64,000 nucleotides of DNA from an uncultured Actinomycetes bacterium (lineage in GTDB: Bacteria; Actinomycetota; Actinomycetes; S36-B12): the NCBI GenBank assembly GCA_963755335.1, contig CAVWJW010000008.1, positions 1,305,684-1,369,683 on the forward strand. Direction: 5' to 3'. Made by a program: the position numbers and the translations under genes. The notes beneath the pieces are model-generated. The model searched no databases. It had not been told where the DNA came from and saw nothing but the letters and a program-made list of their open reading frames with translations. Below, piece by piece: positions 2,407-17,925 of this stretch (position 1 is the stretch's first letter; each line of letters begins with the position of its first letter).

Positions 2407-4050
2407 CAGAACCGACCGATGAGGGGTGCCACGATCACCTTGACGATCATCGCGGCGGGGTACACGAGCGCATAGCCGAGGTTTACCCTCGCGTCGTCAT
2501 GCGTCTGCTCGTTCGAGTAGGCGAGCACGGCGGGCTGGGTCTGGCTGCCGGCGAGGATGCCGCCCATGCGCGGACCGTAGATGCCAGCCAGCAGTCGTCC
2601 GCCGATGAGGATGGTCGCGGCCGTGATGGTCGTGACGACGATGCCGACCGCGAACAGGCGCAGTCCGGTCGGACCGGCCAGCGCGTCCGCCAGGGCCGCA
2701 CCCGAATTCGATCCGGCGTAGGCGAGGAACAGGCTCATGCCGAGGGCGGTGAGGGTGGCCGCGACCGCGTGCGGGATCGTCCACAGGACCGGCCCGGTGC
2801 GCTGGAGGCGACCGACGATCAGGCCTACCACCAGGGGACCGCCTGCCATGCCGAGGGCGAAGTGGCCGCCGCCGGGCAGCGGGAACTGCAGCAGGCCGAT
2901 GAGGACGCCGAGTGCCAGGCCCAGGGCAAGGCTGGTGATCGAGTAGGCCGAGGCGCCCTTCTCGGAGTCGCCCAGGAAGTCCGCCACGTCGTCCATGCGC
3001 CGTCGCGGGGCGACGATCCGGACGCGGTCACCGACCTGCAGCACGAGGTCGTCGGTAGCCAGGAGATCGACGTCACCGCGACGAACGCGGGTGGCGACGG
3101 CGCCGAACTTGCGACGCAGGTGCAGGTCGCCCAGGTGCTGCCCGGCGATCTTCCGGTTCGATACGGCGATGCGGCGATAGTCGACGAGGGAACGGTCCAA
3201 GGTGAGCGCGACGCTCGACAGGATGCCCCACCTGGGCGGTGAACCGCTCCACGGCCTCCTGCTCGCCGATGACGGTGATGATGTCACCGGGCATGGGAAC
3301 GCCGTCATCGGTCGCGACGTCAACGATGCCTGGATGGCCGGGGGTGTCGCCGCGCATGATGCGGGAGAAGACGATGTGGTGGTCGTACTGGTCGGCCAGG
3401 ACTCCGAAGTCGGGCAGTCCGGCCGTCTCGACGCGGACGGTCGTTCCGTCCAGCTGGGGCGGCAGCGGGTCTTCGACGACGGGCGCGAGGGCCTTGTTCG
3501 GGGCCGACATCCGCAGCCCGATCGCGGCGGCGAGCAGCATGCCGAGCACGCCGAACAGGTACGTCACCGAGTAGCCGACGGTCGGGCAGGTCGGAGGCCC
3601 AGGCCTCGGTGGCGGCGGCCAGCGCGGGGGTGTTGGTCAGCGCGCCGGCGTAGATGCCCGACAGGATCGGGCCCTCGAGGCCGAGTGAGTGCGCTGCCGA
3701 GCACGGTCACGACGGCGCCCAGCAGGAGGCCGCCGATCACCACGCCCAGGGCGCGACCACCCGTCTTCATGGCGGCGAAGAACGACGGTCCGGCCCCGAC
3801 CCCGATGACGTACGCGAAGACGGCGAGGCCGAAGGTGCCCAGGATGACGCGGCAGCTTGAGGCGGTCGTCGTACGCCGAGAAGGCCAGCGCGGTGAACAG
3901 CACCGCGGCCGGGCCGAGGGAGAAGCTGCCGATCTTGATGGCCCCGATCGCCCCGCCGATCGCGAGGATGACCATCAACAGCAGCAGTGGCTGCTCGGCG
4001 GCGATATCGGCGTACTGCTGCAAGATCTGGCTCACGTCCACGGGATTCAT
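2406..4050 (-). CDS. YidE/YbjL/AspT-family (AAE) transporter with two internal TrkA-C (RCK_C) domains, several frame breaks
   Basis: N-terminus MNPVDVSQILQQYADIAAEQPLLLLMVILAIGGAIGAIKIGSFSLGPAAVLFTALAF (3637..4050 frame). RCK_C-like segments TTVRVETAGLPDFG...GDIITVIGEQEAVERF and GQHLGDLHLRRKFGAVATRVRRGD...LQVGDRVRIVAP. C-terminal membrane half in 2406..3323. Pieces lie in at least 4 frames. Confidence 0.7.
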
Positions 4051-4133
4051 TATTGCGGGTCGACGCCTGCAAACGCTTACGTCACCGGCGTGACGTCACT
4101 CACGCGGCCCTGCATCGCCCGCCCGCCCGCACG

Positions 4134-5836
4134 TCAGCCGGCGGTGCCGGCGTCGTGGCCCTCGAGGACCAGCCCGTAGGCGACGGCCCATCGATGGTCG
4201 AGGGTCCCCGCGACTCTCGCCCGCCCGACCGTGACGTCGCGCAGGGTCGGTGCCAGGGCCTCGAGCAGCTCGTCATCGCCGGCCGGCCCACCGGTCACGA
4301 CGACCTGGCTGGGCCGCGCAGACGGGTCCACAGCAGCGAGGAGCCGGGTGAGGTTGTCGGCGAACACCCACCGCTTCAGGGACAGGCGCAGCGATCGCCA
4401 TTCGGCCAGCGACAGGCTGCGCGAGAACGGCAGGTCGCCGCTCGGCCCCCGCACGACGAGCCAGCCGACGGTGCCATGCGGCGCGGCGGAGTCCAGGAAG
4501 CGTCGCTCGCCGGACTCGTCGGAGACCACGTGCGGAGCGTCCACGCGGCTTGCCGGGCCGCGCTTCACCCACTCCGCGGCGCCACCAGAGATGGCGAGGG
4601 CATGACGGGTTGCGGCGGTCATCAGCTCGCCGCTGCCGGCCGCTGTGGCGCTGCGGCCATGGGAGTCGATGAGGTCGACCGTGCCGCCCCCGAGGTCGAG
4701 CACCCACGCGTCCGCGCTCGCGCCGGGGGTCGTGAGCGAGCCGCGTCGGCTCGCGGTTCCCTCGTCGCTGATCACCTCGACGGCTCCGCTCCACTCGCGG
4801 GCGAACGCGTCCGTGCCCTCCGTGGACCAGCGGTCGGCTGCGAGGGACGACACGACGAGGGACTGCTCGCGCACCGTGCCGGCTCGAAGCCCCGGCAGAT
4901 CGCTGACGTCGGTGAGGTCCACCAGCCACAGGTCGTCGACCCGCTCGTGCGCGCCCCCAGGTGCGCGCAGCGACCGAACCGCCGGGAGGGTCAGCTGCAG
5001 GAGGATAGACCGGGCCGACGGCAGGTCGACCTCGCGGTCGTCCCGCAGCAGCACGCTGCCGCGGTCGGCGACGACCGCGCCCTCCGGCGCCGCCGACTGG
5101 CGAAGCCGCCCGATCACCGCGTCACGGTGCCCGCGGGTAACGGCCGCCGCAGACACGGCATGACGCTGCTCGTCGAGGGCCAGCTCCAGGGCGTGCACCA
5201 GCCAGAGCGGGTCGGCGAGCGTCGTGACGAGCTGCCCCGACCCGGCGACCTCCAGCGCGATGAGGTCGCAGGCGAGGGCCTGCGAGGGGTCGACGCAGTC
5301 GGCCACCGGCAGGGATCGCTCGAGGCGGGCAGCCACCAGGGCCGCCTCGTCCCCGGCCAGCAGCACGCCGGCGATGTCGCTGCGACGTGACTGCCAGGCG
5401 ACGATCGCGGCTGTCGTGGCCCGGAACCCCAGTGGATCCTCGGCGACGAGCACCAGCGGTCCGGCGCCGACCGTGGCGGGATCCGAATCGACCCGAACCG
5501 GGCGGCCGACGCCGCTGCCGGATCCTGCCGGGGTCGAGGCGCCGGTGGACAGGACCGTCAGACGACCTAGGTCGGCGGGGGCCTCAGGGACGTCGATCCG
5601 ACCGGTGTGCACGGGCCGCTGCGGGGTGACGAACACCGTCTCGATCTCGAGCGTTCCTCGTCTGGCCGCCCGCGCCAGCAGTGCGGCCGCCGCTCGCGCC
5701 GGACTCTGCCGAGCCCTTCCGGCCTCGAGTGGGAGCCCGTTCGGTCGACGACGACATGGGGAGGTGACGCCGAGACGTCGGCGACGACGACCTCGGTGGT
5801 CGAGTTCCCGATGTCGACACCGGCGACGAGCTTCAC
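4134..5836 (-). CDS. Diol/glycerol dehydratase reactivase, large (ATPase) subunit, 2 frame breaks
   Basis: N-terminus MKLVAGVDIGNSTTEVVVA matches the DdrA/PduG-type start (xIAGIDIGNSSTEV). The long C-terminal ORF 4134..5636 has LDLGGGTVDLID and VVVTGGPAGDDEL actin-fold ATPase motifs. GTG 5836 overlaps the upstream stop. Shifts near 5745 and 5700. Confidence 0.8.
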
Positions 5837-6189
5837 GCCAGCAGGCCGCGCGCCAGGTACGCCTGGGCTGCCTCCCGCACCAGTGCGGCGTTCAGCGGAG
5901 CGTCCCGCGCATCGAGGTCGCGCGCGATCTGCTCGAGCTGCGCGCCCGTGGACCGACGCGGGCGGAGTGCCTCGTAGATGGCCAGCACGAGGTCGTCAGG
6001 CAGGACGGACAGTTCCGCTGCGCGCCGGAAGTTCGCCGCCAGCTGCGGGTTGCCGTGGCTGGCCGCCACCTCTGCCTGGTGCTCGAGGGTCGACGGGTCG
6101 ATGCGGATGTCGTCCACGGCGACATCGCCACCGCGTACGGCGTCGAGCGTGATGTCGTCGACGGATCGACCGGACTTCGCGCGGGTCAC
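5833..6189 (-). CDS. B12-dependent diol/glycerol dehydratase small (gamma) subunit
   Basis: VTRAKSGRSVDDITLDAVRGGDVAVDDIRIDPSTLEHQAEVAASHGNPQLAANFRRAAELSVLPDDLVLAIYEALRPRRST aligns by eye with the PduE/PddC core (LDDLTLENV...MRITPETL...NFERAAEL...PDDRILEIYNALRPYRST). GTGA overlap with the beta stop at 6186. Confidence 0.8.
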   Translation of the reverse strand: MTRAKSGRSVDDITLDAVRGGDVAVDDIRIDPSTLEHQAEVAASHGNPQLAANFRRAAELSVLPDDLVLAIYEALRPRRSTGAQLEQIARDLDARDAPLNAALVREAAQAYLARGLLA

Positions 6190-8439
6190 GATCGCACCAC
6201 CTCCATCTCCTCCGGTCCCGCAGTCGGGTCGCACCACTGCCGTTCGATCGCCACCAGCGACACGACGGTCGTGTGGTACCGGGCCTCGATGGCCTCGTCG
6301 GAGTAGGGATTGCGCTCCGGCTCGGGCGTGGCCCCCTTCGCATGCCGACCTGCGTTGACACCGAGCTGGCGATAGGACTCCCGGCTCAGGCTCGGCGCGA
6401 CGGAGTACAGCTCGAGGTTCGCCAGCGGCGAGAGGTCGCGTCGGTGGATCAGGGCAGTGCCCTTGGCCTGCAGGCCGACGCCGATGCCGGAGCCCGAGAG
6501 GCGGGCGGCCGTCAGGCCGATGAGGCCGAGATCGATCGTGTCGTTGATGCGGACCACGCGGCCGACGCAGCCTTCCTCCTCTAGGCCGGCGAGCAGCTCG
6601 TCGAGTGCGTCGTCGACGGTGAGACCCGCTCAGGGTCTGCCAGATCGCCCGACCGGCCGCGGGGGAGACACCGATGACGACGTCACGGGGGTCGTCCCGG
6701 CGTTCGGCGGGACCGGTCGCCCTCAGGGTGCTGGAGGCGTGCTCCTGCTGCTGGGCGCGAAGGTCGTCGACGGATCGCTGCTGACGGATGGCGTCGATCT
6801 CCCGCTGCCGCTGCGGCGTCGGCTCGTAGCCGGTGCCGGGGCCGGAGTAGTCGTTCGGATCCGTGACGAGGGACAGGATGTCCATCTCCTCGTTGAAGAT
6901 CGCCGCAGTCTGGAGATAGTCGCCGTGCACGCGGGCGTGCAGCATCTGCAGCATCCGCTCGGCCTCGACCTCGTAGCCGGCCTCGTCGAGGGCCCGGATG
7001 ACGTCGATCATGGTGATGTTGGTGTCGCGGATCAGGCGGGACGCCGACAACGGAGTCATCAGATCGGCGTCAGGGACGTCCTTCGAGCCCGCCGCGTCGA
7101 CCGCCTGCGCCGCCCAGGCATCGGTGAAGTCGCCGAGACCGAGGATGCGGTACACGTCGCGTACCGCGGCGACGGCCCGTTCGCGCAGTGCGGCAACGTG
7201 CGGTTCGGCCGCTGTGCGCAGTCCGGCATCGACTCCCCAGTCGCGTTGCATGGCCAGGAAGTCGTCGATGTCCTCGGAGTTCCACTGGCTGGGCCCGAAC
7301 ATGTTGTCGTAGCGCTGGATGGAGCCGAAGCCGCTGCAGATGAAGTCGGAGCCGCCGATGAAGATCGGGTGCGTGCGTGACGTGCGCCGCACGTCGGACT
7401 CGCTCATCAGGGCGTCGTTGCCGGTGCAGGCCTCGAGGTTGCGCACCATCACCATGAGGTTCTCGGCCATCAGGCTGCGCACGCCACCGGGCACGGCGCC
7501 GGCGACAGACGCGGAGTCGATCCCGCCGTTCTGGACGCCCTGCGAGCCGATCGCCCGGGCGAGGGCGACGCAGCGGGACTCGAGGTAGAACATCGAGCAG
7601 CCTTCGGCGCTGCCCATCAGGGCCTCCGCGCCCCCGCCTGACGTCACGCGCATCTTGATGCCCCGGCTGGCATACGCCGAGGTCAGGAAGGCCTTCGACC
7701 ATGGGGTGTCGTCGCCGTCGATGAAGATCTGCTCGGTGCCGTACAGGGACACCGTCTCGGCGTACGACACGAGGCCGCGCATGCCCATCTCGAGCTCGAG
7801 GGCCTCCTCGACCGAGCACTGGACGAGGATCCCTGGCGAACCGACGGCCGCGCCGATGCTGACGGCGATGGCATTGGACGGAGCATCGCCGAGGACGGGA
7901 ACGGTCGTCTCGATCTCCCGGAAGCCGAAGGCGGCCGCGGTCGCGGCGTCCGCGGCCAGCAGCAGTGGGTCATCGGACCTGTTCGTCACATGGGCCTGGT
8001 TGCTCGGCGTGCGTCGGGCCCGGCACTTGGTCATCGCGAGGGTGAGCTCGGCCGGCCGCAGCAGGGTGAGGACGCAGGCGAGCTTGGCCGGCGTCATGCC
8101 GCTGGCCAGCCGCACGATCTCGGATCGTGGGACGCCCGGATCCACGATCATGCGGGCGAAGGCGAGGTCCGGGACGCCCATGGCCTCGTCGGCCACCGTG
8201 AGGTCGAGGCCGTGAGCGGCGATGAACGCGTCCAGGAGGTCGAAGTCCGCCGCCGCGCGCGAATCCATCTCCGTGACGCGGCCGTCGGTGATGACCAGCG
8301 AGGGTGCGGGATCCGCGGGGGAGGCGAACGCCATCAGTCCGAGTGCGGCGTCCTCGACGGCGAAGCCGTCGAGGTTCACGCGCTGCTCGTCCATGAAACG
8401 GAAGCGGCCGATCGGCCGCCGACCATCGCCCTCGCTCAT
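6186..8439 (-). CDS. B12-dependent diol/glycerol dehydratase, large (alpha) and medium (beta) subunits in one reading frame, 1 frame break
   Basis: Alpha part: FMDEQRVNLDGFAVED...VQCSVEEALELEMGMRG...SRGIKMRVTSGGG...FYLESRC...GNDALMSESD...QRDWGVDAGL. It runs without a stop into the beta motifs DVVIGVSPA...TLSG. After a shift near 6624 it continues ...RVVRINDTIDLGLIGLTAARLSGSGIGVGLQAKGTALIHRRDLSPLANLELYSVAP (6186..6557 frame). Confidence 0.8.
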
Positions 8440-8870
8440 GCGTCACGCTCCGTCTCGAAGGCAGCCCGTGCGGCCTCGGCGGCTGAACGGTCCTGGTTGG
8501 CCGAGCCACCGCTGACACCGACGCCGCCGACGACACGGTCACCGTCCCACAGCGGCAGCCCGCCGGCGAACGCGATGTAGCGGCCGGAATCGGCGGAGTT
8601 CATGCCGGCGAGCTCGGCACCGGGGGAGACCAGCGCCGTGAGCTCGTGCGTCGCGGACCTGTGCGCCACCGCCGTGAAGCCCTTGTCGCGGGCGAGGACC
8701 GGACCGGCGATCTCTGCTCCGTCCATGCGCTGGAACGCGATCAGGTGCCCGCCCCCGTCGACCACCGCCACGGAGACGAGGGCGCCGGCGGACGCGGCGC
8801 TGTTCAGTGCCGCCGCGCACATGCGTTGCGCCAGGGCCAGATCCATCTCGAAACGAGTCACCCGCGCCAT
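8436..8870 (-). CDS. DUF336 / GlcG / PduO-C-terminal-like (haem-degrading fold) protein
   Basis: 144 aa with VSVAVVDGGGHLIAFQRMDGA...ARDKGFTAVA...GGLPLWDGDRVVGGVGVSGG, typical of DUF336. ATGA overlap with the dehydratase start. Confidence 0.75.
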   Translation of the reverse strand: MARVTRFEMDLALAQRMCAAALNSAASAGALVSVAVVDGGGHLIAFQRMDGAEIAGPVLARDKGFTAVAHRSATHELTALVSPGAELAGMNSADSGRYIAFAGGLPLWDGDRVVGGVGVSGGSANQDRSAAEAARAAFETERDA

Positions 8871-9877
8871 GCTGCTGCGACCTTCCGCATCTGTTCATGC
8901 ATGCCGTTCATGGGTTGGACGGCTCCGAGCACGCTCTTCGGCACCTTGCACACGACTGTGTAGTTCGTGTCGACGACATTGGCGATCGGGGTGAGGGCCG
9001 CCTGCGACACGAGCTGGTAGGCGTCGATGATCGTCTGTCCGGTCAGCTCGGAGACCCACAGGACCATCTGCTGGTGCGCGATGCGGAAGGCGTCCTCGAG
9101 CGGGCGCGCCGATCCCGTCGTCATGACGAAGTCGTCGCTCTCGATGCGCGGCCAGGGAGTGGGGTGTCCGTGCACGATGTCGAGGACCACCGTGCTGTCC
9201 ATGGCGCACTCCACCGCCACGCCGCATGTCTCGCCCTCCCCCTGCCGGGCATGGCCGTCGCCCAGGCTGAACATCGCTCCGTCGACGTTGACACCCAGGT
9301 AGCAGGTGACCCCTACGCGCATCTCCGGCGTGTCCATGTTCCCGCCCCAGTCGCCGGGGGCCAGCGAGGAGCGCACTTCGCCGAGGGCGGGCGCCACACC
9401 GACGGTTCCGTGCATCGGATCGAGGGGGAGCGCGGCCGTGAAGGGAGTGTCCGCGGCCATGTAGCGGACCAGGGCCTCGGCCCGGTCGATCTCGTAGATC
9501 CAGGTGCGTTCCAGCAGTGCGCCGTGCAGCATCGCCGTCGTAGGTGTGGCCGTCAGCGACCCGAAGAACGGCACGGTGCTGCTGACACCCCACGCCTCGC
9601 GGGGCTCGATGGACACGAAGTGGACGGCGAGGGTGTCACCGGGTTGTGCGCCCTCGACGTAGAAGGGGCCGGACTGGGGGTTGAGCAGGCGCGGGTCGCA
9701 GACCTGGCTGGCGAGGTCGGACGTGCTGCGCACGCGGCCGCCGAAGCAGTCCATCGTCCACGTCGACAGGACCGTCCCGGGGCGGACGGACGCGACGGGG
9801 GGCACCCCGCCGAACGTGTAGGTGTAGGTGGTCGGATCAGCGTCGGCGTCGGGCTCCCAGCGAAGCTCCTCGGGCAC
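8858..9877 (-). CDS. Acetamidase/formamidase (FmdA_AmdA) family amidohydrolase
   Basis: LNPQSGPFYVEGAQPGDTLAVHFVSIEP...GDWGGNMDTPEM...GAMFSLGDGHARQGEGETCGVAVE are family hallmarks. Preferred start is GTG 9877, preceded by GAGGAGG. ORF 8858..9937 extends slightly further upstream. Confidence 0.8.
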   Translation of the reverse strand: MPEELRWEPDADADPTTYTYTFGGVPPVASVRPGTVLSTWTMDCFGGRVRSTSDLASQVCDPRLLNPQSGPFYVEGAQPGDTLAVHFVSIEPREAWGVSSTVPFFGSLTATPTTAMLHGALLERTWIYEIDRAEALVRYMAADTPFTAALPLDPMHGTVGVAPALGEVRSSLAPGDWGGNMDTPEMRVGVTCYLGVNVDGAMFSLGDGHARQGEGETCGVAVECAMDSTVVLDIVHGHPTPWPRIESDDFVMTTGSARPLEDAFRIAHQQMVLWVSELTGQTIIDAYQLVSQAALTPIANVVDTNYTVVCKVPKSVLGAVQPMNGMHEQMRKVAAAWRG

Positions 9878-9960: not shown

Positions 9961-11575
9961 TCAGCCCCGGCTGTGCGCTTCCTCGATCGTCGTCCGGCCG
10001 ATCTCGGCGTAGATCTCGGGGCGCTTCGCCTTCAGGTAGAGCGCGTACACGACGCCGATGAGGAACAGGCCGATGACGTAGTACGGCATCCACTGGAAGA
10101 CGAGGCTGTCGGCGGCCAGCCCGGCGGCGAAGCTGCGGTTGGACCACAGCAGGTAGAGGGCGTAGATCATGCCCGCGGCGCCGACGATCGGGGCGACGAG
10201 CGTCATGAGGAAGTTGCCCTTGTTCACCTTCTTGACCCAGAAGTACCAGATGACCGCGAAGGACGTGATCGTCTGGACGATGAGCACCATCGCCGTTCCG
10301 ATGAGCGCCAGGATGCCGTAGACGTTGACGTACGGAATCAGGTCAGGCGTGGCCTGCGGAACCCCGTTCGCGTCGGGCACGTACACGTTGGTGAACAGCA
10401 GGAACAGCACGCACAGCAGGAGCGTGATGCCGCTCTGCACGAACGACGCGATCGCCGGCGACCCGTGCTTGACGTTGACGTGGCCCAGGGTGTTGCGGAC
10501 CGAGGAGGCCACGCTCTCGCGTCCCATCGCGTAGAGGTACCGCGAGGCTGCGTTGTGGAAGGCCATCGCACAGGCGAACGAGCCGATCACGACGAGCAGC
10601 TTGTAGACGTTCTCGGCGAGGCCGCCGAGGTTCGCGTTGACGAGGTTGAGCCACAGGTCGACGGGCGAGGCTCCGGCGGAGACCTCGACCGAGGTCTTGG
10701 CGCCGTTGCCGACGACGACCATCCACGACATGAAGGTGTAGAACAGGCCGAGGCCGATGACTGCGATCATGGTGGCGAGGGGGACGTTGCGCTTCGGGTT
10801 CCTCGACTCCTCGCCGTAGACGGCGGTCGTCTCGTAGCCGACCCAGGACCAGAAGGCGAAGAAGATTCCGATGGCGGAGGCGCCTGCCGCGACGCTCGTG
10901 CCGAAGGCTCCTTCAGGCAGCGAGCTGAAGGCGGCTATCGGGTTCACCGTGTCGGCCGCCATGAAGCCGTCCGGACCGCCCTTGATCAGCACGGAGATGC
11001 CGAGGGAGGCGAGCAGCAGCACCTCGCACACCAGGGTCACGCTCAGCACGCTGGCCGCGAGGGAGATGGAGAAGTAGGTGAGGAGCGCGATCACGGCGAT
11101 GCCGAGGATGGCGATCCAGATCCAGTTGATGGTCAGGCCCATCGGGAGGAAGACGTACTGCGAGGCGAAGTAGGCGAACCCGCCGATCAGCGAGCCCTCG
11201 AAGATGATGTAGGCGACGGCGGCGAGCATGCCCGGAGGCCATGCCCCAGACCTGGCCGAGGCCCTGCGAGATGAAGCCGTAGAAGGCGCCGGCCGTGGTG
11301 ACGTAACGGGCCATGGCCACGAAGCCCAGCGTGAAGATCGTGAGGACGATCGTGGCGAACAGGAAGCCGCCCGAGACGGCGATGCCGTTGCCGTAGCCGA
11401 TCGCGATGGGGACGTTGAAGCTCATGGCGGTGATCGGCGCCGCGTTCGCGACCGCCATGAACAGGACGCCGACCAGACCGACTGCCCCGACCTTGAGGCG
11501 GGCAGCCTCCTTGGTGTTCAGCTGGTGATCACCGGGCAGCGCATGCGGCCCGTCCTCGAGGTTGCTCGTGCTCAT
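9961..11575 (-). CDS. APC-superfamily amino acid/amine permease, 1 frame break
   Basis: Twelve-helix-type hydrophobic profile. N-terminus MSTSNLEDGPHALPGD...GAVGLVGVLFMAVANAAPITAM (10913..11575 frame) continues in 9961..11229 (MLAAVAYIIFEGSLIGGF...). Extra G near 11231. RBS GGGAGGA lies before ATG 11575. Confidence 0.8.
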
Positions 11576-11624
11576 GAACCGTCCTCCCGTGGCCGACCCG
11601 CGTGATGCAGGTCACGATTCGCGG

Positions 11625-11653
11625 AGTATGGCGCCATCCTTGGACCGTTACAA
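11625..11653 (-). promoter_or_regulatory. Candidate sigma-A-type promoter of the permease/dehydratase operon
   Basis: On the minus strand: TTGTAA, 17 nt, CATACT, about 50 nt upstream of ATG 11575. Located in the only AT-enriched stretch of the locus. Confidence 0.3.
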
Positions 11654-11670
11654 GCATTTCCACGTATTCC

Positions 11671-11817
11671 GGTCTGGAATTATCCCGATGGAAACACCGA
11701 AACGGTCTGTTAACCGTCCGGCAACACGCCAGAGACCACACCGATACGTTGAACATCCGGATTCGTTCACGAGGGGGCGAGGACTTTAGTCCTCGTTTAC
11801 GGTATTGATTTGGTCTG
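11671..11817. promoter_or_regulatory. Three GGTCTG boxes (candidate GntR/HutC operator half-sites) in the divergent BMC control region
   Basis: GGTCTGGAATT (11671), ACGGTCTGTTAACCGT (11702-11717, arms ACGGT/ACCGT) and TTGGTCTGCCAA (11811-11822, arms TTGG/CCAA). The third box lies in the spacer of the plus-strand promoter. TGGTCT is the half-site I recall for the HutC-subfamily regulator DasR. Confidence 0.35.
11778..11795. promoter_or_regulatory. 18-bp near-perfect palindrome upstream of the BMC operon promoter
   Basis: CGAGGACT-TT-AGTCCTCG with 8-bp perfect arms, ending 10 bp upstream of the candidate -35. Confidence 0.35.
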
Positions 11818-11832
11818 CCAATTCGGTATGGT
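11805..11832 (+). promoter_or_regulatory. Candidate promoter of the BMC enzyme/shell operon; implies a leaderless mRNA
   Basis: TTGATT (11805-11810), 16 nt, TATGGT (11827-11832). The in-frame GTG at 11839 lies 7 nt after the -10, and GTG 11833 abuts it. No Shine-Dalgarno sequence is present. Confidence 0.3.
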
Positions 11833-13153
11833 GTGCGGGTGACCGACCAGGCCGAAGCGGCGCCGGAGTACGACTACGGGCTGTTCACGTTCTCCTCCAA
11901 GGCCGAGGTTCTCGACAAGGCGAAGGAGTACTGGAACCCGGGCAAGACCCAGTTCTGGATCGACTCCGGGGTGCCCCTGGTGATCGACCGGCGCGAGGGC
12001 TACTTCCTCTGGGACATGTCCGGCAAGCGGCTCATCGACCTGCATCTCAACGGCGGCACCTACAACATCGGCCATCGCAACCCTGAGGTCGTCCAGGCGC
12101 TCACCGTGGCGATGCAGCACTTCGACATCGGCAACCACCACTTCCCGGCGCTGGCCCGCACCGCGCTCGCCGAGGCGCTGATCGCGTCAGCACCGGCCGG
12201 CCTCTCGAAGGTGATGTACGGCAGCGGCGGCGGCGAGGCGATCGACATCGCCCTGAAGACGGCGCGCAACGCCACGCAGAAGCGCAAGATCGTCTCGATC
12301 ATCAAGGCCTATCACGGTCACACGGGCCTCGCCGTCGGCGCCGGCGACGAGCGGTTCTCCAAGTTCTTCCTCGCCGACCAGCCGGAGGACTTCCCGCAGG
12401 TTCCCTTCAACGACCTCGAGGCGATGGAGGACGCGCTGCGCGGGCGCGATGTCGCCGCCGTGATCATGGAGACGATCCCTGCGACGTTCGGCTTCCCGCT
12501 GCCTGAGCCCGGCTACCTGCGGGCCGTCAAGGCACTGTGCGAGCAGTACGACGCGCTGTACATCGCCGACGAGGTGCAGACCGGACTCATGCGCACGGGC
12601 GAGCTGTGGGGCATCACCAAGGAGGGCATCGAGCCCGACATCATGGTGACCGGCAAGGGCATCTCCGGCGGCATGTACCCGATCGCCTGCGTGCTGGCCA
12701 GTGACGCCGCCGCTGGGTGGCTCACCGAGGACGGCTTCGCGCACATGTCGACGTTCGGCGGGGCGGAGCTCGGCTGCATCGCGGCGATGAAGGCCCTGGA
12801 GATCTGCTCGCGCACCGAGACCCGCTCGATGGTCCACTACATCGCCGACCTGATCGGCTCGGGCCTGCGCTCGATCCAGGCCGACGTACCCCGACTGGTT
12901 CATCGGCATCCGCCAGAACGGCGTCATCTTCGGACTGGAGTTCAACGACCCGCAGGGCGCCAAGTACGTGATGCGGCGGCTGTACGAGAACGGCGTGTGG
13001 GCGATCTTCTCCACCCTCGACCCGCGGGTGCTGCAGTTCAAGCCGGGGATCCTGCTCAAGCCGGAGGTCGCCGAGGAGGTCCTCGACCGCGTGGAGGTCG
13101 CCATCGGCCTGGCCTACCGCGACGTGACGGGTGCCGGGGGTGGTCGTCGATGA
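11833..13153 (+). CDS. Class-III aminotransferase-fold PLP enzyme (putative 1-amino-2-propanol O-phosphate phospho-lyase), 1 frame break
   Basis: LWDMSGKRLIDLHLNGGTYNIGHRNPEV...GSGGGEAIDIALKTAR...YHGHTG...ADEVQTGLMRTGELWG...DIMVTGKGISGG (PLP-Lys context). The true C-terminus YPDWFIGIRQNGVIFGLEFNDPQGAKYVMRRLYENGVWAIFS...GGGRR is in the 12968..13153 frame (shift near 12886). The real start may be GTG 11839. Confidence 0.8.
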
Positions 13154-14710
13154 CCGCGCTGCTGGCGGACATACCACTGGAGCCGGCCGGCGTGCCGCGC
13201 GGTCGGGCCATGGTCGAACGCGCCGAGTGGGCCGCCCGGGCGTTCGCCTCCTACGACATCGAGACCGTGCGTCGCATCGCCAAGGCCGCGGCAGAGGCGG
13301 GCGAGAAGCATGCGCGGACGTTCGCCGAGGACGCGGTCGCCGAGACCGGCTTCGGCGTCGCGGAGCACAAGGTCCTCAAGAACGTGGCCTGCTCCATCGG
13401 CATCTGGAACACCTACGGCGGCAATGACTACGTGACACCCGTCGTCCACGACGACCAGCGGGTAGTCGAGATCCCGCGACCGGCGGGAGTCGTCTTCGCC
13501 CTCACGCCGTCGACCAACCCCGTGGCCACCACCTACTTCAAGATCATGCTCGCCCTCCTGACGCGCAACGCGATCATCATCAGCCCGCATCCCTATGCCA
13601 AGAAGGTCTGCGCCGCGGCAGCACGGGTCATGGGCGACGCCGCCATCGAGGCGGGCGCACCCGACGGGTGCATCCAGGTCGTCGAGGAGCCTTCCGTCCC
13701 GCTGATCGATGCGGTGATGTCGGATCCCCGCGTCGATGTCATCGTCGCGACGGGTGGGACCCCGATGGTCCGGGCGGCCTATCGAAGCGGCAACCCCGCG
13801 CTCGGCGTCGGTCCGGGCAACGTCCCCGTCCTGGTCGATGCCACGGCCGACCTGGCGATGGCGGCGCGTCACCTGGTCGCGAGCAAGGCGTTCGACAACT
13901 CGATCCTGTGCACCAACGAGTCCGTCGTGATCGTCGAGGAGAAGGTGGCCGCACCGTTCGCCGCCGCCCTTCGGCGTGAGGGCGCCTACGTCCTCGAGGG
14001 TGAGGAGATCGATGCCGTCCGGGGGGTGATCTTCGAGGGAGACCACTTCAACGTCGCTTGGGTCGGCCGCTCGGCCCGCCAGATCGCCGAGGCCGCCGAG
14101 GTCAAGGTCCCGGCGAACACGCGGATCCTCGTGGCGCCGTTCCCGATCGTGGTGCCGGAGGAGATGCTCGCCCACGAGAAGCTCTGCCCGGTTCTCGGCC
14201 TGGTGACGGTGCCGAGTGCATCGCGAGGGATCGACGCCGCCAGGGCCGTCCTGCGCATCACCGGCGCCGGGCACAGCGCGGCGATCCACAGTGCGGATCC
14301 GGGCACGGTCATGGCCTTCGCGGCCGCCGTACGGGTGCTTCGCGTGTCCGTGAACGTCGGCAACAGCCTGGGCGGCGCGGGCATCGAGACGAACCTGGCC
14401 CCGTCGATGACCATCGGCACCGGGTTCTTCGGCGGCTCGTCGCTGGGCGAGAATCTCGAGCCCAAGCACCTCGTCGACATGACCCGTATCGCGTACAACG
14501 CGGACACCCGTGTGCCCATGCCGAGCTTCGCCGACCTGACGCCCTGGGCGGCGCCCACGGGGGTCGTCCCGGCGTACCCGTTCGCGTCGAACCTGGCCGA
14601 CGCGCCGCGCCTGGTGCCCCCCACCCCGACCCGATGACGGGACCGGCGAGCTCCGCGAGGAGATCCGCCGACTCGTCGTCGAGGAACTACGACAGATCAT
14701 CAAGGGCTGA
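13150..14710 (+). CDS. CoA-acylating aldehyde dehydrogenase (EutE/PduP-like) with C-terminal encapsulation-peptide-like helix, 1 frame break
   Basis: ATG 13150 overlaps the upstream stop (ATGA). ALTPSTNPVAT...VATGGTPMV...GVGPGNVP...AFDNSILCTNES (catalytic Cys). After the C-run at 14617-14622 the frame shifts, and the gene continues PTPDDGTGELREEIRRLVVEELRQIIKG to the stop at 14708-14710. Confidence 0.8.
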
Positions 14711-14714: not shown

Positions 14715-15317
14715 GTGGCTGAACTGCGCTCCTTCATCTTCCTGGACCGGCTCCAGCCGCAGACCATGTGCTACCTCGGCACCTGGGTCCGTGGCGCACT
14801 GCCGCGGGCGGACTACGCCGCCCAGATCATCGAGGTGGCGCCGGGGCTCGACATCGAGCCGCTCACCGACGTGGCGCTCAAGCATGCCCACGTGGGGGCC
14901 GGGATCCTCTTCGTCGAGCGGCAGTTCGGGTACCTCGAGATCCACGGCCCGACGAGTGCGGTGCGCAGTGCGGCGGACGCCGCCCTCGAGCAGCTGGGAG
15001 CCACCGCGCACAGCGCGATGCGCCCGCAGATCCTCGCCTCACGCATCGTGCCGAAGATCGACCGTCAGCACGCGTTCCTCATCAACCGGAACAAGATCGG
15101 GTCGATGGCGCTGCCGGGGGAGTCGATGTTCGTCCTCGAGATGCAGCCGGCCAGCTACGCCATCCTCGCCGCGAACGAGGCGGAGAAGGCCGCTCGCGTC
15201 AAGGTCGTCGACTACCGCATGGTCGGTGCCACTGGTCGCGTGTACCTGACCGGGACCGAGTCCGAGGTGCGGGCCGCGGCCGAGGCCGCCGAGGCCGCGC
15301 TCCAGGCGGTGGCGTGA
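14715..15317 (+). CDS. Two-domain BMC shell protein (BMC-T-like, EutL/PduB-type permuted fold), paralogue 1
   Basis: GTG 14715. About 200 aa with two similar halves (IIEVAPGLDIEPLTDVALKHA...[16 protein letters not shown] and [42 protein letters not shown]). The second half resembles the EutL C-terminal domain by eye. Sits between cargo and shell genes. Confidence 0.6.
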   Translation: MAELRSFIFLDRLQPQTMCYLGTWVRGALPRADYAAQIIEVAPGLDIEPLTDVALKHAHVGAGILFVERQFGYLEIHGPTSAVRSAADAALEQLGATAHSAMRPQILASRIVPKIDRQHAFLINRNKIGSMALPGESMFVLEMQPASYAILAANEAEKAARVKVVDYRMVGATGRVYLTGTESEVRAAAEAAEAALQAVA

Positions 15318-15662
15318 TGACGACTAGCGGTCCTGTCTCGAACGACCTGCTGCGGGAGGTGATCCGCGACGTCGTCCGCGAGGTCATCCGGGAGGTGGTG
15401 GCCGAGGAGATCGCCGCGGCGTCCCTCGCCCGCACGGTCAGCCCAGGAGCCCCCACGCCGGCGAGCGGCGGTCGCCTCGGGCAGCCCGGCAGGTTCCGTG
15501 TCAGGCGCGACCCGGCTCGAGCGCGGGGCGCTCACCGAGCGGCATGTCCGCGCCGCCGGTCCGTCCGCCACCATCACCATCACGCGGGCCGTCGTGGTCA
15601 CGCCGCTCGCCAAGGAGCGCGCCAAGGCCATGGGCGTCGAGATCATCCGGATCGAGGAGTAG
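15317..15662 (+). CDS. Small (~114 aa) BMC-locus protein with N-terminal encapsulation-peptide-like amphipathic helix, 1 frame break
   Basis: ATG 15317 (TGATG overlap). N-terminus MTTSGPVSNDLLREVIRDVVREVIREVVAEEIAAAS, then a P/G/A-rich linker. The C-terminus lies in another frame (shift about 15485-15500): ...LERGALTERHVRAAGPSATITITRAVVVTPLAKERAKAMGVEIIRIEE, stop at 15660-15662. Confidence 0.55.
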
Positions 15663-15670
15663 GAGTCACC

Positions 15671-15928
15671 ATGCTGCGTGCACGAGTGGTCGGAAACGTG
15701 TGGTCGACCCGCAAGGTGTCGTCGATCCCCAACGGCGCCTTCCTGGAGGTCGAGGTGGAGCCGGGCGGCTCCCGCCTCATCGCGTTCGACGTGCTCGGAT
15801 CCGGCATCGGCGAGGCGGTGCTCGTGTCCACGGGCTCGGTCGCCGCGTCCTGGTTCCCCGGCGAGGCACCGCCCATCGACGCCCTCATCATCGGCTCCAT
15901 CGACGAGAGCGGCAGCCCGACTGCGTGA
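15671..15928 (+). CDS. BMC-P pentameric vertex protein (EutN/CcmL family)
   Basis: [29 protein letters not shown]...[23 protein letters not shown]. 85 aa. RBS AGGAG at 15661-15665. Confidence 0.85.
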
Positions 15929-15977
15929 CCGCAGCGGCCACGAACATCCACGAGCTCATCAACAGAAGGGAAGCACC

Positions 15978-16259
15978 ATGTCCAACAACGCGATCGGCAT
16001 GATCGAGACCAGGGGATACGTCGCGGCGCTCGCCGCGGCCGACGCCATGGTCAAGGCGGCCAACGTGACCATCGTCAGTCGCGAGCAGGTCGGCGCCGGG
16101 CTCGTCGCGGTGACCATCTCGGGCGACGTCGGCGCCGTGAAGGCCGCCACCGAGGCGGGCTCCGAGGCCGCCAGCCAGGTCGGCGAGCTGGTCAGCGTCC
16201 ACGTCATCCCGCGCCCGCACTCCGAGCTCGCCAAGAACTTCAGCGTCAGCGCACAGTGA
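15978..16259 (+). CDS. BMC-H hexameric shell protein (single PF00936-type domain)
   Basis: [61 protein letters not shown]...VHVIPRPH is the canonical BMC-H sequence. 93 aa. Confidence 0.92.
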
Positions 16260-16915
16260 CCGCGAGCGGCCTCACCGCTTCCGCGTCGCCTGAGCTCCGG
16301 GTCTACCTGCAGCTGGAGGACCTCCAGCCGCAGTTCGCCGCCTACCTCGGCACGCCGACGCGGGCACGCGGCTACCCGCCCTACGCGGGCCAGCACGCGC
16401 TCATCGTCGAGGTCGCGCCGGGCCTGGCGATCGAACGGGTGACCGACCTCGCCCTGCGATCCGTGCCGGACGTGGTGCCGGGGATCCTGTTCGTCGAGCG
16501 CCAGTTCGGCGTCCTCGAAGTGCATGCCGACGACCTCGACCAGGTGCAGGCGGCCGGGCGGGCGATCCTCGACGGCATCCATGCCGAGGCCGACCATCAG
16601 CTGCGCCCGCGGATCCTCTTCCACGACGTCGTCGAGGACATCACCGACCAGCATGCCGTGATCATCAACCGCAACCGGCAGGCCTCCATGCTGCTTCCCG
16701 GGCAGAGCCTGCTCGTGTTCGAGATGACGCCAGCCCTCTTCGCTGCCATGGCGGCGAACGAGGCCGAGAAGGCGGCCCCCGACATCACGCTCGTGGATGT
16801 CCAGATGATCGGGGCTGCCGGCCGGGTCTACATCGGTGGCACGACGGAGTCCGTCGAGATCGCCCGCCAGGCCATCGGCGCGGCTTTGGCTGCGGTCATC
16901 GGTCGCGACCAGTAA
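16256..16915 (+). CDS. Two-domain BMC shell protein (BMC-T-like), paralogue 2
   Basis: GTGA overlap with BMC-H. Alignable over its full length with 14715..15317 (shared blocks [20 protein letters not shown], LRPx[19 protein letters not shown]). Confidence 0.6.
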
Positions 16916-16944: not shown

Positions 16945-17925
16945 GTGGACGATCCGGTGTCGTCGTTCGAGCAGTTCGCCCACGCGGCCCTGCCCGTGTA
17001 CGGCCTCGACCCGTCCGCAGAGGTCACCCTGCTGAACGTGTCGGAGAACGGCACCTTCCGCGTCGATGACCCCTCCCAGGGCAGATCGGTGCTCCGGGTG
17101 CATCGCACCGGGTACCACGCCAAGCAGGCCATCCGCTCCGAGCTGGCGTGGATCTCGGCGCTTCGCGCGGACGGCGTCGTCCGCACGCCGGCCTACCTGC
17201 CCACGCTCGGCGGGGACGACGTCGCGGCGGCGCGGCTGCCCGACGGGCAGGAGCGCTACGTCGTGCGGTTCGCCTGGGCGGACGGCATCGAGCCCACGGA
17301 GGACCGACTTGCGCAGGACTTCGAGCAGCTCGGGGCCATCACCGCCCGTCTGCACGAGCATGCGCGCCAGTGGCATCGGCCGACGGAGTTCACCAGGTTC
17401 GTCTGGGACTTCGACACCTCGTTGGGCGAGCGGGGCCACTGGGGGCGTTGGCAGGACGGCCTCGCCGTCGGGCCGCAGGAGGAGGAGATCCTCGGCAGGT
17501 GCGCCGACCTGCTGAGGAGTCGGCTGGCCCTCTACGGCACCGGACCGGATCGGTTCGGCCTCGTGCATGCCGACATGCGGCTGGCCAACCTCCTCGTGAA
17601 GGGAGACGACGTCACCGTCATCGACTTCGACGACTGCGGACTGTCGTGGTTCATGTACGACCTCGGCTCGTCACTGTCCTTCATCGAGCATGAGCCCTAC
17701 GTTCCCGAGCTGATCGACGCGTGGGTGCGCGGCTACCGAACGGTCACGACGCTGCCCGCCGACGACGAGGCGGAGCTGCCGACGTTCGTCATGCTCCGAC
17801 GGCTTCTGCTGGTGGCGTGGATCGGCTCGCACGCCGCCACCGAGACGGCGCAGTCCATGGGCGAGGAGTTCACGGCCACCAGCTGCACACTCGCCGAGGA
17901 GTACCTCAGCACAATGTCCCGGTGA
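16945..17925 (+). CDS. APH-fold (aminoglycoside phosphotransferase-like) small-molecule kinase; predicted 1-amino-2-propanol kinase
   Basis: Brenner/APH motifs [13 protein letters not shown] and VIDFDDCG. 326 aa. Position next to the shell genes and the SDR matches what I recall of the M. smegmatis RMM locus. Confidence 0.75.

Follow-up and report, generated by a model that had tools for sequence, protein, structure and literature searches.

A probable RMM2-type diol-dehydratase module with a fused alpha-beta subunit and a lone large reactivase subunit

The dehydratase genes of the window (the whole 64-kb stretch of DNA analysed here) probably form the diol-dehydratase module of an RMM2-type locus, with a fused AdoCbl enzyme and a single-subunit reactivase, the dehydratase likely not being an obligate shell cargo. 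RMM2 is the Rhodococcus/Mycobacterium microcompartment subtype with diol dehydratase genes, as defined by Axen et al. 2014. The finding is largely ordinary, since both the alpha-beta fusion, described for Mycobacterium (Liu et al. 2010; Martins-Pinheiro et al. 2016), and the missing small reactivase subunit are already on record. What is new is that genes for an amino-alcohol kinase, phospholyase and permease accompany the module also at loci lacking a shell, that it leaves no room for terminal encapsulation peptides, that the substrate pocket is changed throughout the clade (Ser301 to Asp and Gln336 to Ala/Asn), and that a Solirubrobacterales sister clade retains the small reactivase subunit.

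The dehydratase string lies on the minus strand and is transcribed divergently from the shell operon. Its first gene encodes an APC-family amino-acid/amino-alcohol permease (9967..11575; PF13520/PF00324, tblastn match in two frames, one frameshift), behind which stand five genes with overlapping stop and start codons: an FmdA/AmdA-family amidase (8861..9877; PF03069, 90.6% identity to the orthologue in locus L001), upstream of and overlapping a DUF336/HbpS-like protein of 144 aa (8436..8870; PF03928, 109 bits), the fused alpha-beta subunit (6186..8439), the gamma or small subunit of 118 aa (5833..6189; PF02287, 130 bits, model positions 17-132 of 133), and a DdrA/GdrA/PduG-like reactivase large subunit (4134..5836; PF08841 and PF18427). 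The DUF336 stop overlaps the alpha-beta start (ATGA), the GTG start of gamma at 6189 overlaps the beta stop (GTGA), and the GTG start of the reactivase at 5836 overlaps the gamma stop. The last gene of the string is an Asp-Al_Ex/TrkA_C transporter of the AspT/YidE type (~2409..4041; Pfam and tblastn, split over at least four frames in this assembly), rightly called an unrelated transporter in an earlier, sequence-only reading of this DNA, and an intact 543-aa orthologue lies directly 3' of the reactivase in L001-L003.

The plus strand carries a class-III aminotransferase-like enzyme, a candidate for the RMM phospholyase (11839-13150), and an aldehyde dehydrogenase (13150-14707), both recognised by family match and tblastn and each with one frameshift. 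These are followed by BMC-T (14715-15314), a 108-aa protein (15317-15659; tblastn with L001 proteins and peptide motif scan), BMC-P/EutN (15671-15919), BMC-H (15978-16253) and a second BMC-T (16256-16912), the shell proteins being assigned by tblastn with L001 proteins and by Pfam matches of the L001-L003 orthologues. An APH-family kinase (16945-17919), a short-chain dehydrogenase (ending at 18719) and a GntR/UTRA regulator (18863-19540), all found by tblastn, complete the RMM gene set. The window shares with RMM2 the aldehyde dehydrogenase, aminotransferase, kinase and short-chain dehydrogenase (Axen et al. 2014; Sutter et al. 2021), as well as the permease, the GntR regulator, BMC-H, BMC-P, two BMC-T and adjacent diol dehydratase genes. 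The gene set matches RMM2 and not the Pdu system in which the sequence-only reading had framed the locus. The position of the dehydratase on the strand opposite the shell operon is also as in the accessible text of Axen et al. 2014, whereas that text has neither the arrangement of other lineages, with the dehydratase on the same strand right after the kinase, nor the shell-less module.

The alpha-beta fusion is real and lineage-wide. Minus-strand frame 0 is open from the Met at 8439 through ...GYEPTPQRQREIDAIRQQRSVDDLRAQQQEHASSTLRATGPAERRDDPRDVVIGVSPAAGRAIWQTLSG, passing from alpha to beta without a stop, as had been noticed from the sequence alone. With one nucleotide corrected, the window gene encodes 750 aa, and an intact public protein of 750 aa (P0001) is 99% identical to it. 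Alignment with homologues, which the sequence-only reading had suggested, gave a single continuous match over residues ~10-747 in 79/79 retrieved genome loci, and the fused loci span Kineosporia, Nocardioides, Streptosporangiaceae, Mycolicibacterium, Thermoleophilia and Solirubrobacterales. All of the top 120 protein matches are 708-764 aa long and have both domains (PF02286 and PF02288), more than 100 being intact at 735-764 aa. The junction has a constant length of 62-64 aa in 13 representative sequences.

In 84 fused sequences the catalytic and Ca2+-binding residues Q141, H143, E170, E221, Q296, D335 and S362 do not vary. P0001 reaches 818 bits with NF011979 (cut-off 788). Beta, gamma and the reactivase all fall under the NCBIfam curated cut-offs, gamma being below every small-subunit cut-off. 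PDB matches for the dehydratase and reactivase include 1IWP, 1DIO, 2D0O and 1NBW. An engineered 754-aa K. pneumoniae fusion (9VII/9VI2) can be aligned with the window protein over its full length (E 2e-198). Such engineered fusions (PDB 9VI2, 9VII and others; Wang 2009, Gibson 2013 and Maddock 2017, as cited in PMC7674605) have the same architecture, solved structures and reported activity, whereas the fusion in the window is natural. The enzyme belongs to the AdoCbl- and Ca2+-dependent vicinal-diol dehydratases typified by PddABC, PduCDE and DhaB123, and in it alpha and beta form one chain by an end-to-end join of about the length of both native termini, presumably assembling with gamma as (alpha-beta)2 gamma2.

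The mycobacterial clusters MSMEG_6321/6320/6318, Mflv_1245-1247 and Mvan_5563-5561 show the same order of alpha+beta gene, gamma and large reactivase, with ~60% identity of the fused protein to that of the window, and the Mycolicibacterium loci of the retrieved set share this order and the Asp301 signature. Unlike the mycobacterial clusters, the window has the Asp-Al_Ex transporter after the reactivase; in the retrieved mycobacterial loci the DUF336 and FmdA genes are missing, as are shell genes in many of them. K. pneumoniae DhaB123, like the window, has short beta and gamma subunits without Pdu-type extensions, and the dha genes likewise include a DUF336 gene upstream and a large reactivase gene after gamma. 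The differences are the pocket (Asp301 and Ala336 in the window, Ser and Gln in K. pneumoniae), the absence in the window of GdrB, unlike GdrAB, and the setting, an aerobic actinomycete beside a microcompartment locus as against the dha regulon. PduCDE (PddABC) of Salmonella and Klebsiella oxytoca, with PduGH (DdrAB), belongs to the same enzyme family, with the same catalytic residues and type of reactivating ATPase, but the window lacks PduH, PduO and PduS and has a different shell gene set.

The missing small reactivase subunit is also real and shared across the lineage. The large subunit, 566 aa after removal of two bases, has DDR and DDR_swiveling domains and matches 2D0O_A (E 9e-36) and 1NBW_A (E 1e-30), but it is distant from the Klebsiella large subunit and ~40 aa shorter, and it scores 177 bits against TIGR04491, whose cut-off is 400. 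Across 55 orthologues (33-66% identity) its ATPase motifs are preserved. An HMM of 122 DdrB/GdrB-family sequences matches only the beta domain in the 64-kb window, in line with the sequence-only reading, and the 92-nt gap at 4042-4133 is too small for the DdrB gene that might have been sought there. Across the retrieved loci, in which alpha-beta, gamma and reactivase are contiguous almost everywhere, GdrB/DdrB phmmer and the same HMM matched nothing but beta domains and one free-standing ORF in L080, apart from two weak stray matches in L077 and L043 (E 0.007-0.06) that were judged to be chance. No conserved ORF was found 3' of the reactivase.

A published genome-wide table lists dhaF as present and dhaG as empty for three complete Mycobacterium genomes, which thus have no dhaG anywhere (Liu et al. 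2010; Martins-Pinheiro et al. 2016). A large subunit without an adjacent DdrB is not odd in itself, since dhaG also lies apart from dhaF in the Klebsiella dha regulon, judging from locus tags. The Solirubrobacterales/Thermoleophilia clusters L080, L084 and L085 share gamma, a large reactivase subunit of 562-568 aa and an alpha-beta fusion that has Asp301, measures 748-749 aa and is 57% identical, but, unlike the window, they have a PF02288 small subunit of 103-106 aa directly after the large one; a 149-aa ORF lies between gamma and reactivase, and shell genes are not nearby. In the clade of the window, the DdrA-like ASKHA ATPase encoded directly downstream would exchange the damaged cofactor of suicide-inactivated enzyme without a small DdrB/PduH/GdrB subunit.

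The best PDB matches of the DUF336 protein are 2A2L (K. pneumoniae OrfY), 5CX7 (C-terminal domain of PduO) and 6BWS (EfgA), which bears out its earlier assignment to the PduO C-terminal type. Its gene precedes the fused one in 10 of the 53 loci with full flanks, the set used, with a 10-kb radius, for all neighbourhood counts. The adenosyltransferase reported as absent nearby was not found either, as no Cob_adeno_trans or CobA family member occurs in the ORFs scanned across 64 kb; cob(I)alamin would be adenosylated by a housekeeping enzyme elsewhere in the genome.

The short N-termini noted before are confirmed. The alignment of beta with the 224-aa PddB begins at residue 48 of the latter, leaving the N-terminal targeting region of PddB without a counterpart in the window; gamma, which begins at the core in all lineages, lacks the ~55-aa Pdu extension (NF011972 aligned from model position 55); alpha has ~10 additional N-terminal residues. 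Alpha-beta, gamma and reactivase are essentially without terminal extensions able to hold an encapsulation peptide. For Pdu, the earlier statement that the extensions of both PduD and PduE carry encapsulation peptides needs a correction, since targeting is established for that of PduD but reportedly (Fan and Bobik 2011) not for that of PduE. A motif scan for encapsulation peptides was positive for PduD and for the N-terminal helix of the 108-aa shell-operon protein, the sole match in the locus, and negative for alpha-beta, gamma, reactivase and DUF336 in any lineage. The C-terminus of the aldehyde dehydrogenase (...ELREEIRKLVVEELRQIIKG in L001) is a second peptide-like helix, identified by eye.

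Since there is no terminal extension for such a peptide, the dehydratase most likely need not be packaged in the shell, and a cytosolic location would follow. The two options left by the sequence-only reading, outside the shell or targeted by another mechanism, were already posed for RMM2 by Axen et al. 2014; neither is provable from sequence, but the peptide-free termini and the 23 of 53 loci that carry the trio without a shell gene within 10 kb favour the former. It is possible, though we doubt it, that the dehydratase is a second signature enzyme packaged in the RMM2 shell without a terminal peptide, giving a bifunctional compartment for diols and amino alcohols, for example by piggy-back on the peptide-bearing aldehyde dehydrogenase or on the 108-aa protein with its peptide and domain, or by binding through the conserved alpha-beta junction. 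Shell genes do occur within 10 kb in 30/53 loci, and Streptosporangiaceae-type loci have a permease on the other strand and then aminotransferase, aldehyde dehydrogenase, shell genes, kinase, alpha-beta, gamma and reactivase on one strand. The phospholyase candidate, the other aldehyde-forming enzyme, has no obvious peptide either, so there must be a way into the shell that does not need one. The junction sequence RQxEIDxIRQQRSVxDLR is conserved and does not look like a linker, but in its first half it lines up with the helix that ends the native alpha subunit of K. pneumoniae, DhaB1 (ERWAEIKNIP), and the termini and shell-less loci speak against packaging. An aldehyde produced outside the shell undercuts the usual metabolosome logic, and the co-directional dehydratase right behind the kinase in Streptosporangiaceae-type loci favours a role with the compartment.

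We propose that the dehydratase would turn a 1,2-diol (1,2-propanediol, ethylene glycol or glycerol-like) into its aldehyde, that the amino-alcohol branch of dehydrogenase, kinase and phospholyase would yield the same aldehyde class, and that the locus aldehyde dehydrogenase would oxidise the aldehyde from both. The pocket differs from those of characterised enzymes, so the substrate may be neither 1,2-propanediol nor glycerol: position 301 is Asp instead of Ser in 83 of 84 fused sequences, position 336 is never Gln but Ala, Asn, Thr or Ser, and position 337 changes from Thr to Leu. Ser301 and Gln336 face the substrate C3 and control glycerol handling, and other natural fusions (P0244, P0247, P0290) retain Ser301. 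In 41/53 loci, 11 of them shell-less, a kinase or aminotransferase gene is found within 10 kb, and in many loci a co-directional permease is immediately upstream. We nevertheless consider it unlikely that the clade has given up propanediol and glycerol for another substrate, possibly a cationic vicinal diol such as 3-amino-1,2-propanediol, which would tie the enzyme functionally to the amino-alcohol permease, kinase and phospholyase. The Ca2+- and diol-binding residues are all unchanged, so ordinary diols should still bind; neither a natural source nor a downstream route for the amino-diol product is evident in the locus; and convergence on the same aldehyde explains the linkage equally well. 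Literature on activity, substrate or localisation in this clade yielded only annotations.

In the window copy a single nucleotide is inserted at three places, once in beta and twice in the reactivase (near 5749 and 5697). These insertions are most likely assembly errors rather than gene decay, as contig L004 (94.7% identical) has none of the three and housekeeping genes across the window are also frameshifted. It is very unlikely that the cluster is a decaying pseudogene relic whose frameshifts are genuine and whose module no longer functions, for although the three insertions in 4.3 kb are uncompensated and none extends a long homopolymer run, many unrelated window genes have a similar frameshift density, in-frame stops and deletions are absent, the corrected alpha-beta is nearly identical to an intact protein, the short string genes (amidase, DUF336, gamma) are intact, and the frameshifted permease and transporter are in the company of many other window genes. 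The first 18 kb of the window contain at least 14 frameshifts, and further splits affect a hydrolase gene and one resembling topoisomerase IV/gyrase A elsewhere in it. The beta insertion, which the sequence-only reading did not mention, is one extra T at ~6624 (6623..6625, minus strand, GGG[T]CTC) that moves the remaining beta to another frame and so creates an 868-aa ORF (5833-8439) of alpha, the start of beta, ~150 aa of Arg/Pro-rich out-of-frame sequence and gamma. Removing it restores the 750-aa alpha-beta, with a corrected beta junction, WQTLSG|LTVDDALDELLAGLEEEG, that agrees with intact homologues.

The window, with a G+C content of about 70%, comes from an error-rich assembly of a freshwater-type actinomycete and carries an RMM2 locus (the Rhodococcus/Mycobacterium microcompartment subtype with diol dehydratase genes), whose dehydratase module pairs a fused diol dehydratase with a large-subunit reactivase. 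Four minus-strand genes with overlapping stop and start codons lie between 8870 and 4134: a DUF336/HbpS-like protein of 144 aa (8436-8870), an alpha subunit of the PduC/DhaB1 type, which begins at 8439 and runs without a stop into the start of beta (...DVVIGVSPAAGRAIWQTLSG), a gamma subunit of 118 aa (6189-5833), whose GTG start overlaps the stop of beta in the bases GTGA, and a DdrA-like large reactivase subunit (5836-4134), whose GTG start likewise overlaps the stop of gamma. The 868-aa ORF found at 5833-8439 is an artefact of a single inserted base: past WQTLSG it consists of about 150 out-of-frame Arg/Pro-rich residues, and the real continuation of beta (LTVDDALDELLAGLEEEG...MEVVRS, then a stop) sits in the next frame. 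When one T is dropped from GGG[T]CTC near 6624, a 750-aa alpha-beta protein results. The reactivase frame is broken by two single-base insertions, near 5749 and near 5697. For annotation, the true products are the 750-aa alpha-beta and the 118-aa gamma, with all pieces of the reactivase belonging to a single gene.

We conclude that the assembly is most likely rich in single-base indels and that the locus is probably not decaying, since the public metagenome contig L004, whose DNA is 94.7% identical over 4.4 kb, is without exactly these three inserted bases, frame changes occur across the window, and there are no in-frame stops or deletions. The alpha-beta protein of L004 is intact, has 750 aa and shares 99% identity with the corrected one of the window. 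With the proteins of L001, a 90%-identical relative (Kineosporia sp.), as tblastn queries, at least 14 frame changes are observed in the first 18 kb, affecting the transporter, a hexapeptide-repeat protein, the permease, the aminotransferase, the aldehyde dehydrogenase and a 108-aa shell-operon protein, among others. The Asp-Al_Ex/TrkA_C transporter gene downstream of the reactivase (2409-4041, minus) is spread over at least four frames, an alpha/beta hydrolase gene (38203-39383, plus) is split into two pieces, and in a topoisomerase IV/gyrase A-like gene (55881-58399, minus) the C-terminal beta-propeller repeats fall into two further frames. A GC3 frame-tracking count, in which gene boundaries and frameshifts are inseparable, was used only to choose cases for Pfam checking.

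The window protein matches alpha subunits of known structure (1IWP_A, E 2.5e-160; 1DIO_A, E 7.6e-159), its beta domain matches 1IWP_B (E 1.4e-33), and P0001, an intact database protein 99% identical to the corrected sequence, scores 818 bits with NF011979 (cut-off 788). Gamma scores 130 bits with PF02287 (cut-off 25); the stricter NCBIfam cut-offs are missed by both the PF02288-type medium part (159 versus 248) and the small subunit (138 versus 183). The corrected alpha-beta query retrieved 7,931 relatives, the best 120 of which are 79-99% identical and 708-764 aa long, each with PF02286 and PF02288. NCBI names these best 120 'propanediol/glycerol family dehydratase large subunit'; by labelling the fusion 'large subunit' only, automated pipelines hide the beta domain. 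When one genome per species was scanned, relatives were found in 586 genomes, and in every one of the best 79 loci examined alpha-beta is one continuous match over residues ~10-747. The taxa include Kineosporia, Nocardioides, Phycicoccus, Microtetraspora, Streptosporangiaceae and Trebonia, together with many Mycolicibacterium/Mycobacterium, Acidimicrobiaceae, Thermoleophilia and Solirubrobacterales; the closest match in the genome collection is 83% identical. Complete genomes with the module include OZ241368.1 (Kineosporiaceae) and NZ_CP192587.1 (Mycolicibacterium psychrotolerans). The stop-free fusion described in the sequence-only reading is thus real, being one ORF in the window and in 79/79 related loci and intact in L004 and P0001, whereas PddABC, PduCDE and DhaB123 each consist of three separate polypeptides (alpha2 beta2 gamma2). 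The locus conforms to the natural fusions of Liu et al. 2010, with one ORF for the large and medium domains and a separate small subunit.

The stretch from GPGTGY to VVIGVSPA measures 62-64 aa in 13 representative sequences, and the junction is partly conserved in sequence (RQxEIDxIRQQRSVxDLR). Among solved structures, the nearest to the window protein are alpha-beta fusions of 754 aa engineered from K. pneumoniae (9VI2, 9VII and others); the alignment with them runs over the full length (E 2e-198), and its only gaps are three short ones at the junction. Judged from these alignments, the natural fusion consists of short-form subunits joined end to end, with no linker inserted, because the helix that natively ends DhaB1 (ERWAEIKNIP) lines up with the first half of the conserved junction and the beta part starts about where short DhaB2 starts. 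The engineered fusions are reportedly more stable and inactivated more slowly (PMC7674605), and natural ones are of interest to engineers of glycerol and diol dehydratases.

According to PMC7674605, Liu et al. 2010 described naturally fused alpha-beta proteins in Mycobacterium smegmatis and Mesorhizobium loti; Martins-Pinheiro et al. 2016 (PMC4777399) reported such fusions a second time, with Hyphomicrobium added. In the S1 table of PMC4777399, dhaF (large reactivase subunit) is listed and the dhaG (small subunit) column is empty genome-wide for M. gilvum, M. smegmatis and M. vanbaalenii, all of them complete genomes, and unfused actinobacteria, among them Geodermatophilus, Modestobacter and Propionibacterium, have both dhaF and dhaG. 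As the fusion, the empty dhaG column and the RMM2 setting were already published, the main points of the sequence-only reading are correct and this kind of system is already on record. Experiments might be worthwhile only on the atypical pocket, on the reactivase that lacks a small subunit and on the lasting linkage to amino-alcohol genes.

The reactivase scores 138 bits with PF08841 and 62.7 bits with PF18427, and 177 with the PduG equivalog model, below its cut-off of 400. The corrected 566-aa protein matches both halves of DdrA (2D0O_A, E 9e-36) and GdrA (1NBW_A, E 1e-30), with ~25 fewer residues between the halves. Its 55 orthologues are only 33-66% identical, and they keep the ASKHA phosphate-1, phosphate-2 and adenosine motifs (AG.D.GN.TTE, D.G.GT.D and GG.A.D.E are conserved). 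For the small subunit (DdrB/GdrB/PduH), the queries were GdrB, in a sequence identical to 1NBW_B, and DdrB, in a sequence that agrees with the part of 2D0O_B compared, and the search covered every six-frame ORF in the window and in 83 loci. These queries retrieved only beta domains, save one ORF in the Solirubrobacterales locus L080. This 106-aa ORF (...GFEEEGVP...GIGIG...FGRNAARIA...) lies immediately downstream of the large subunit and has 243 PF02288 relatives, some of them named 'glycerol dehydratase reactivase beta/small subunit family protein'. A family HMM that combined GdrB, DdrB and 120 of the 243 relatives found a free-standing small subunit only in L080, with no such protein in the 64-kb window and 78 of the 79 related loci; weak matches in L077|2-451 (E 0.007) and L043 (E 0.06) were judged to be chance, and a weak DdrB-like match at L049|3854-4186(-) is out-of-frame Arg/Ser-rich junk that was left out of the final HMM. 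A DdrB/PduH-like ORF at 4051-4133 or within the broken reactivase was likewise dismissed, as the gap is 92 nt, the three frames rejoin as one 566-aa protein and the family HMM is empty there, in line with the earlier description of a large reactivase subunit only.

A PF02288 small subunit of the ~100-125-aa class is present in L080, L084 and L085, the last two having the order fused alpha-beta, gamma, 149-aa ORF, large subunit, small subunit. The 149-aa ORF (MTREETIARRQLETLAGDERGRQLL...), which belongs to no Pfam family, lies between gamma and the reactivase in all three (L080 12642-13091; L084 5863-6312; L085 5863-6312). The small subunit has thus either disappeared from the cluster or relocated within the fused lineage. 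A strict coupling of this loss to the fusion is ruled out, and the two are separate events, because Solirubrobacterales fused clusters retain the small subunit. In the other loci, no conserved ORF that could replace the small subunit was found downstream of the reactivase, where the genes differ between loci, and alpha-beta, gamma and reactivase adjoin one another. DdrB is said, in work by Shibata et al. 2005, to fold like the dehydratase beta and to be displaced by it during reactivation. A DdrB-free large subunit would, in our view, expose the docking face for beta permanently. Loci with large and small subunits, with the large subunit only and with no reactivase nearby form a natural comparative set for how fusions are reactivated, a question raised in PMC7674605.

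The residues Gln141, His143, Glu170, Glu221, Gln296, Asp335 and Ser362, among the Ca2+/substrate and catalytic residues whose roles are tabulated in PMC7674605, are invariant in 84 fused sequences, including that of the window. Ser301 and Gln336, which face substrate C3 and control glycerol-dependent inactivation (PMC7674605), are replaced: position 301 is Asp in the window and in 83 of the 84 fused sequences (Glu in one), and position 336 is Ala in the window (Ala 49, Asn 29, Thr 5 and Ser 1 of 84). Position 337, Thr in characterised enzymes, is Leu in all 84, and position 338, Phe in characterised enzymes, is Met, Ile or Val across the fused clade. Asp301 as an outcome of fusion is ruled out; it is rather a signature of the actinobacterial clade, because the other natural fusions found in an exhaustive representative search (P0244, P0247 and P0290) retain Ser301. 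P0244 resembles the Mesorhizobium type, with gamma before alpha-beta and no reactivase nearby. L087 (2927-5570) has a natural fusion of a different type, with gamma before alpha-beta, Ser301 kept and no reactivase nearby; it adjoins malate synthase and a GntR/FCD regulator and resembles the arrangement published for Mesorhizobium. Liu et al. 2010, as relayed in PMC4777399, reportedly called the active site 'slightly different', and the literature searched yielded no biochemical report on any fused actinobacterial member.

Upstream of the dehydratase string lie an FmdA/AmdA amidase (8861-9877, minus), which overlaps the DUF336 gene, and an APC permease (9967-11575, minus). A divergent plus-strand operon starts with a class-III aminotransferase-like gene and an aldehyde dehydrogenase, continues with BMC-T, the 108-aa protein, BMC-P, BMC-H and a second BMC-T, and ends with an APH kinase, a short-chain dehydrogenase and a GntR/UTRA regulator. 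All members of the RMM core (aldehyde dehydrogenase, class-III aminotransferase, APH phosphotransferase, short-chain dehydrogenase, amino-acid permease and GntR regulator) are thus in the window, as are the RMM2 shell genes BMC-H, BMC-P and BMC-T and the adjacent diol dehydratase. The shell genes (14715-16912) are 88-96% identical to the L001 shell proteins by tblastn and, compared with the Pdu shell, form an RMM-type set of BMC-H, BMC-P and two CsoS1D-like BMC-T. The 263-bp divergent control region that separates the permease/dehydratase string from the shell operon (11576-11838) has three GGTCTG half-sites and the palindrome CGGTCTGTTAACCG at 11660-11830, which may serve the regulator encoded at 18863-19540 as operators of the GntR/HutC type.

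All 79 related loci keep alpha-beta, gamma and reactivase in this order, nearly always without other genes between them. Among the 53 loci with full 10-kb flanks, shell genes are present in 30; a kinase and/or aminotransferase accompanies the module in 41, of which 11 are shell-less, and neither kind of gene is found in 12. The window dehydratase (4134-8439) diverges from the shell operon. Axen et al. 2014 define RMM2 as an RMM locus with diol dehydratase genes, note the opposite-strand arrangement, and offer two options, a dehydratase unused by the compartment or a bifunctional compartment. That arrangement, the basis of their argument against co-transcription, differs from the Streptosporangiaceae-type loci, where the dehydratase is on the same strand, directly 3' of the kinase, at the end of the shell operon. 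The question of whether the RMM2 compartment uses the dehydratase is sharpened by these operon-embedded and shell-less versions of one module.

The dehydratase is probably not an obligate shell cargo. The N-terminal encapsulation extensions are indeed missing, as first noted: beta, which lacks a free N-terminus, aligns with the 224-aa PddB only from PddB residue 48 onwards, whereas the Pdu medium subunit has an N-terminal amphipathic peptide (PduD residues 1-18); alpha has only ~10 residues ahead of its conserved start; and gamma opens at position 17 of the Pfam model and position 55 of the 174-position PduE-like NCBIfam model, being equally short in operon-embedded loci. A simple doubled-hydrophobic motif scan, with PduD as control, gave no match in alpha-beta, gamma, reactivase or DUF336 and was positive for PduD and the 108-aa protein; the missing room for a peptide is the stronger evidence. 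The alpha-beta junction (QRQREIDAIRQQRSVDDLRAQ) was rejected as an internal encapsulation peptide, its first half aligning with the DhaB1 C-terminal helix and the doubled-hydrophobic pattern of PduD and the 108-aa protein being missing. Gamma extensions in operon-embedded loci with wider beta-gamma gaps were also rejected: the upstream in-frame residues are overlap or short tandem repeats, and gamma begins 3-5 residues before its core. In some Streptosporangiaceae-type loci such repeats occupy the whole space from the beta stop to the gamma start, as in L082 and L024 (~12230-12330), with the in-frame translations GQAQAGQAQAGQAQ and SPGRPSPGRPSPGRP. The L001 aldehyde dehydrogenase has a peptide-like amphipathic helix at its C-terminus after a Pro/Ser-rich linker (...ELREEIRKLVVEELRQIIKG). 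The 108-aa protein (window 15317-15659, plus; L001 2793-3119) has a strong N-terminal encapsulation-peptide-like helix DLLREVIRDVVREVIREVV, then a Pro/Ser linker and, at its C-terminus, a small domain that matches neither Pfam nor NCBIfam; the protein is a candidate adaptor or scaffold of the RMM shell. The phospholyase candidate shows no clear peptide, so the absence of a peptide alone does not rule out packaging.

The enzyme is predicted, as its most likely function, to turn a small vicinal diol into an aldehyde of the class that the amino-alcohol branch also makes. We think it improbable that the clade is a distinct enzyme system, in which the Asp301/Ala(Asn)336/Leu337 pocket would serve another substrate, possibly an amino-substituted vicinal diol, and a single-subunit reactivase chaperone would dock directly on the tethered beta, without the DdrB-for-beta swap that has been proposed for DdrAB. 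A different substrate would explain the tight linkage to amino-alcohol kinase, phospholyase and permease genes, whether shells are present or not.

The DUF336 protein has 2A2L, 5CX7 (the PduO C-terminal domain) and 6BWS (EfgA) as its best solved relatives, and the match to 5CX7 bears out its earlier assignment to the PduO C-terminal type. We take 2A2L to be K. pneumoniae OrfY, encoded just upstream of dhaB1. A locus-tag gap in the S1 table of PMC4777399 is consistent with this position. DUF336 is found in just 10 of the 53 full-flank loci and is therefore an accessory gene. No adenosyltransferase family was detected in the ORFs scanned across the 64-kb window, as had been noted for the nearby genes, and its absence here is not remarkable for an actinomycete with a housekeeping PduO-type enzyme. 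The pdu operon includes PduGH, PduO and PduS, whereas the scanned ORFs of the window contain no PF02288 singleton, adenosyltransferase or PduS-type family. No cobalamin riboswitch was found in the window by Rfam, whose sole match is a SAM-IV riboswitch.

Immediately after the RMM regulator, we observe an Amidase-family gene (19541-20983), a zinc alcohol dehydrogenase (20949-22166, minus) and a large gene of the pyruvate:ferredoxin oxidoreductase type (22209-25445), which is unusual in an aerobic actinomycete. The SAM-IV riboswitch (RF00634, 36576-36682, plus; 104.8 bits versus a gathering threshold of 38) precedes an ORF for a Cys/Met-metabolism PLP enzyme (37064-37909).
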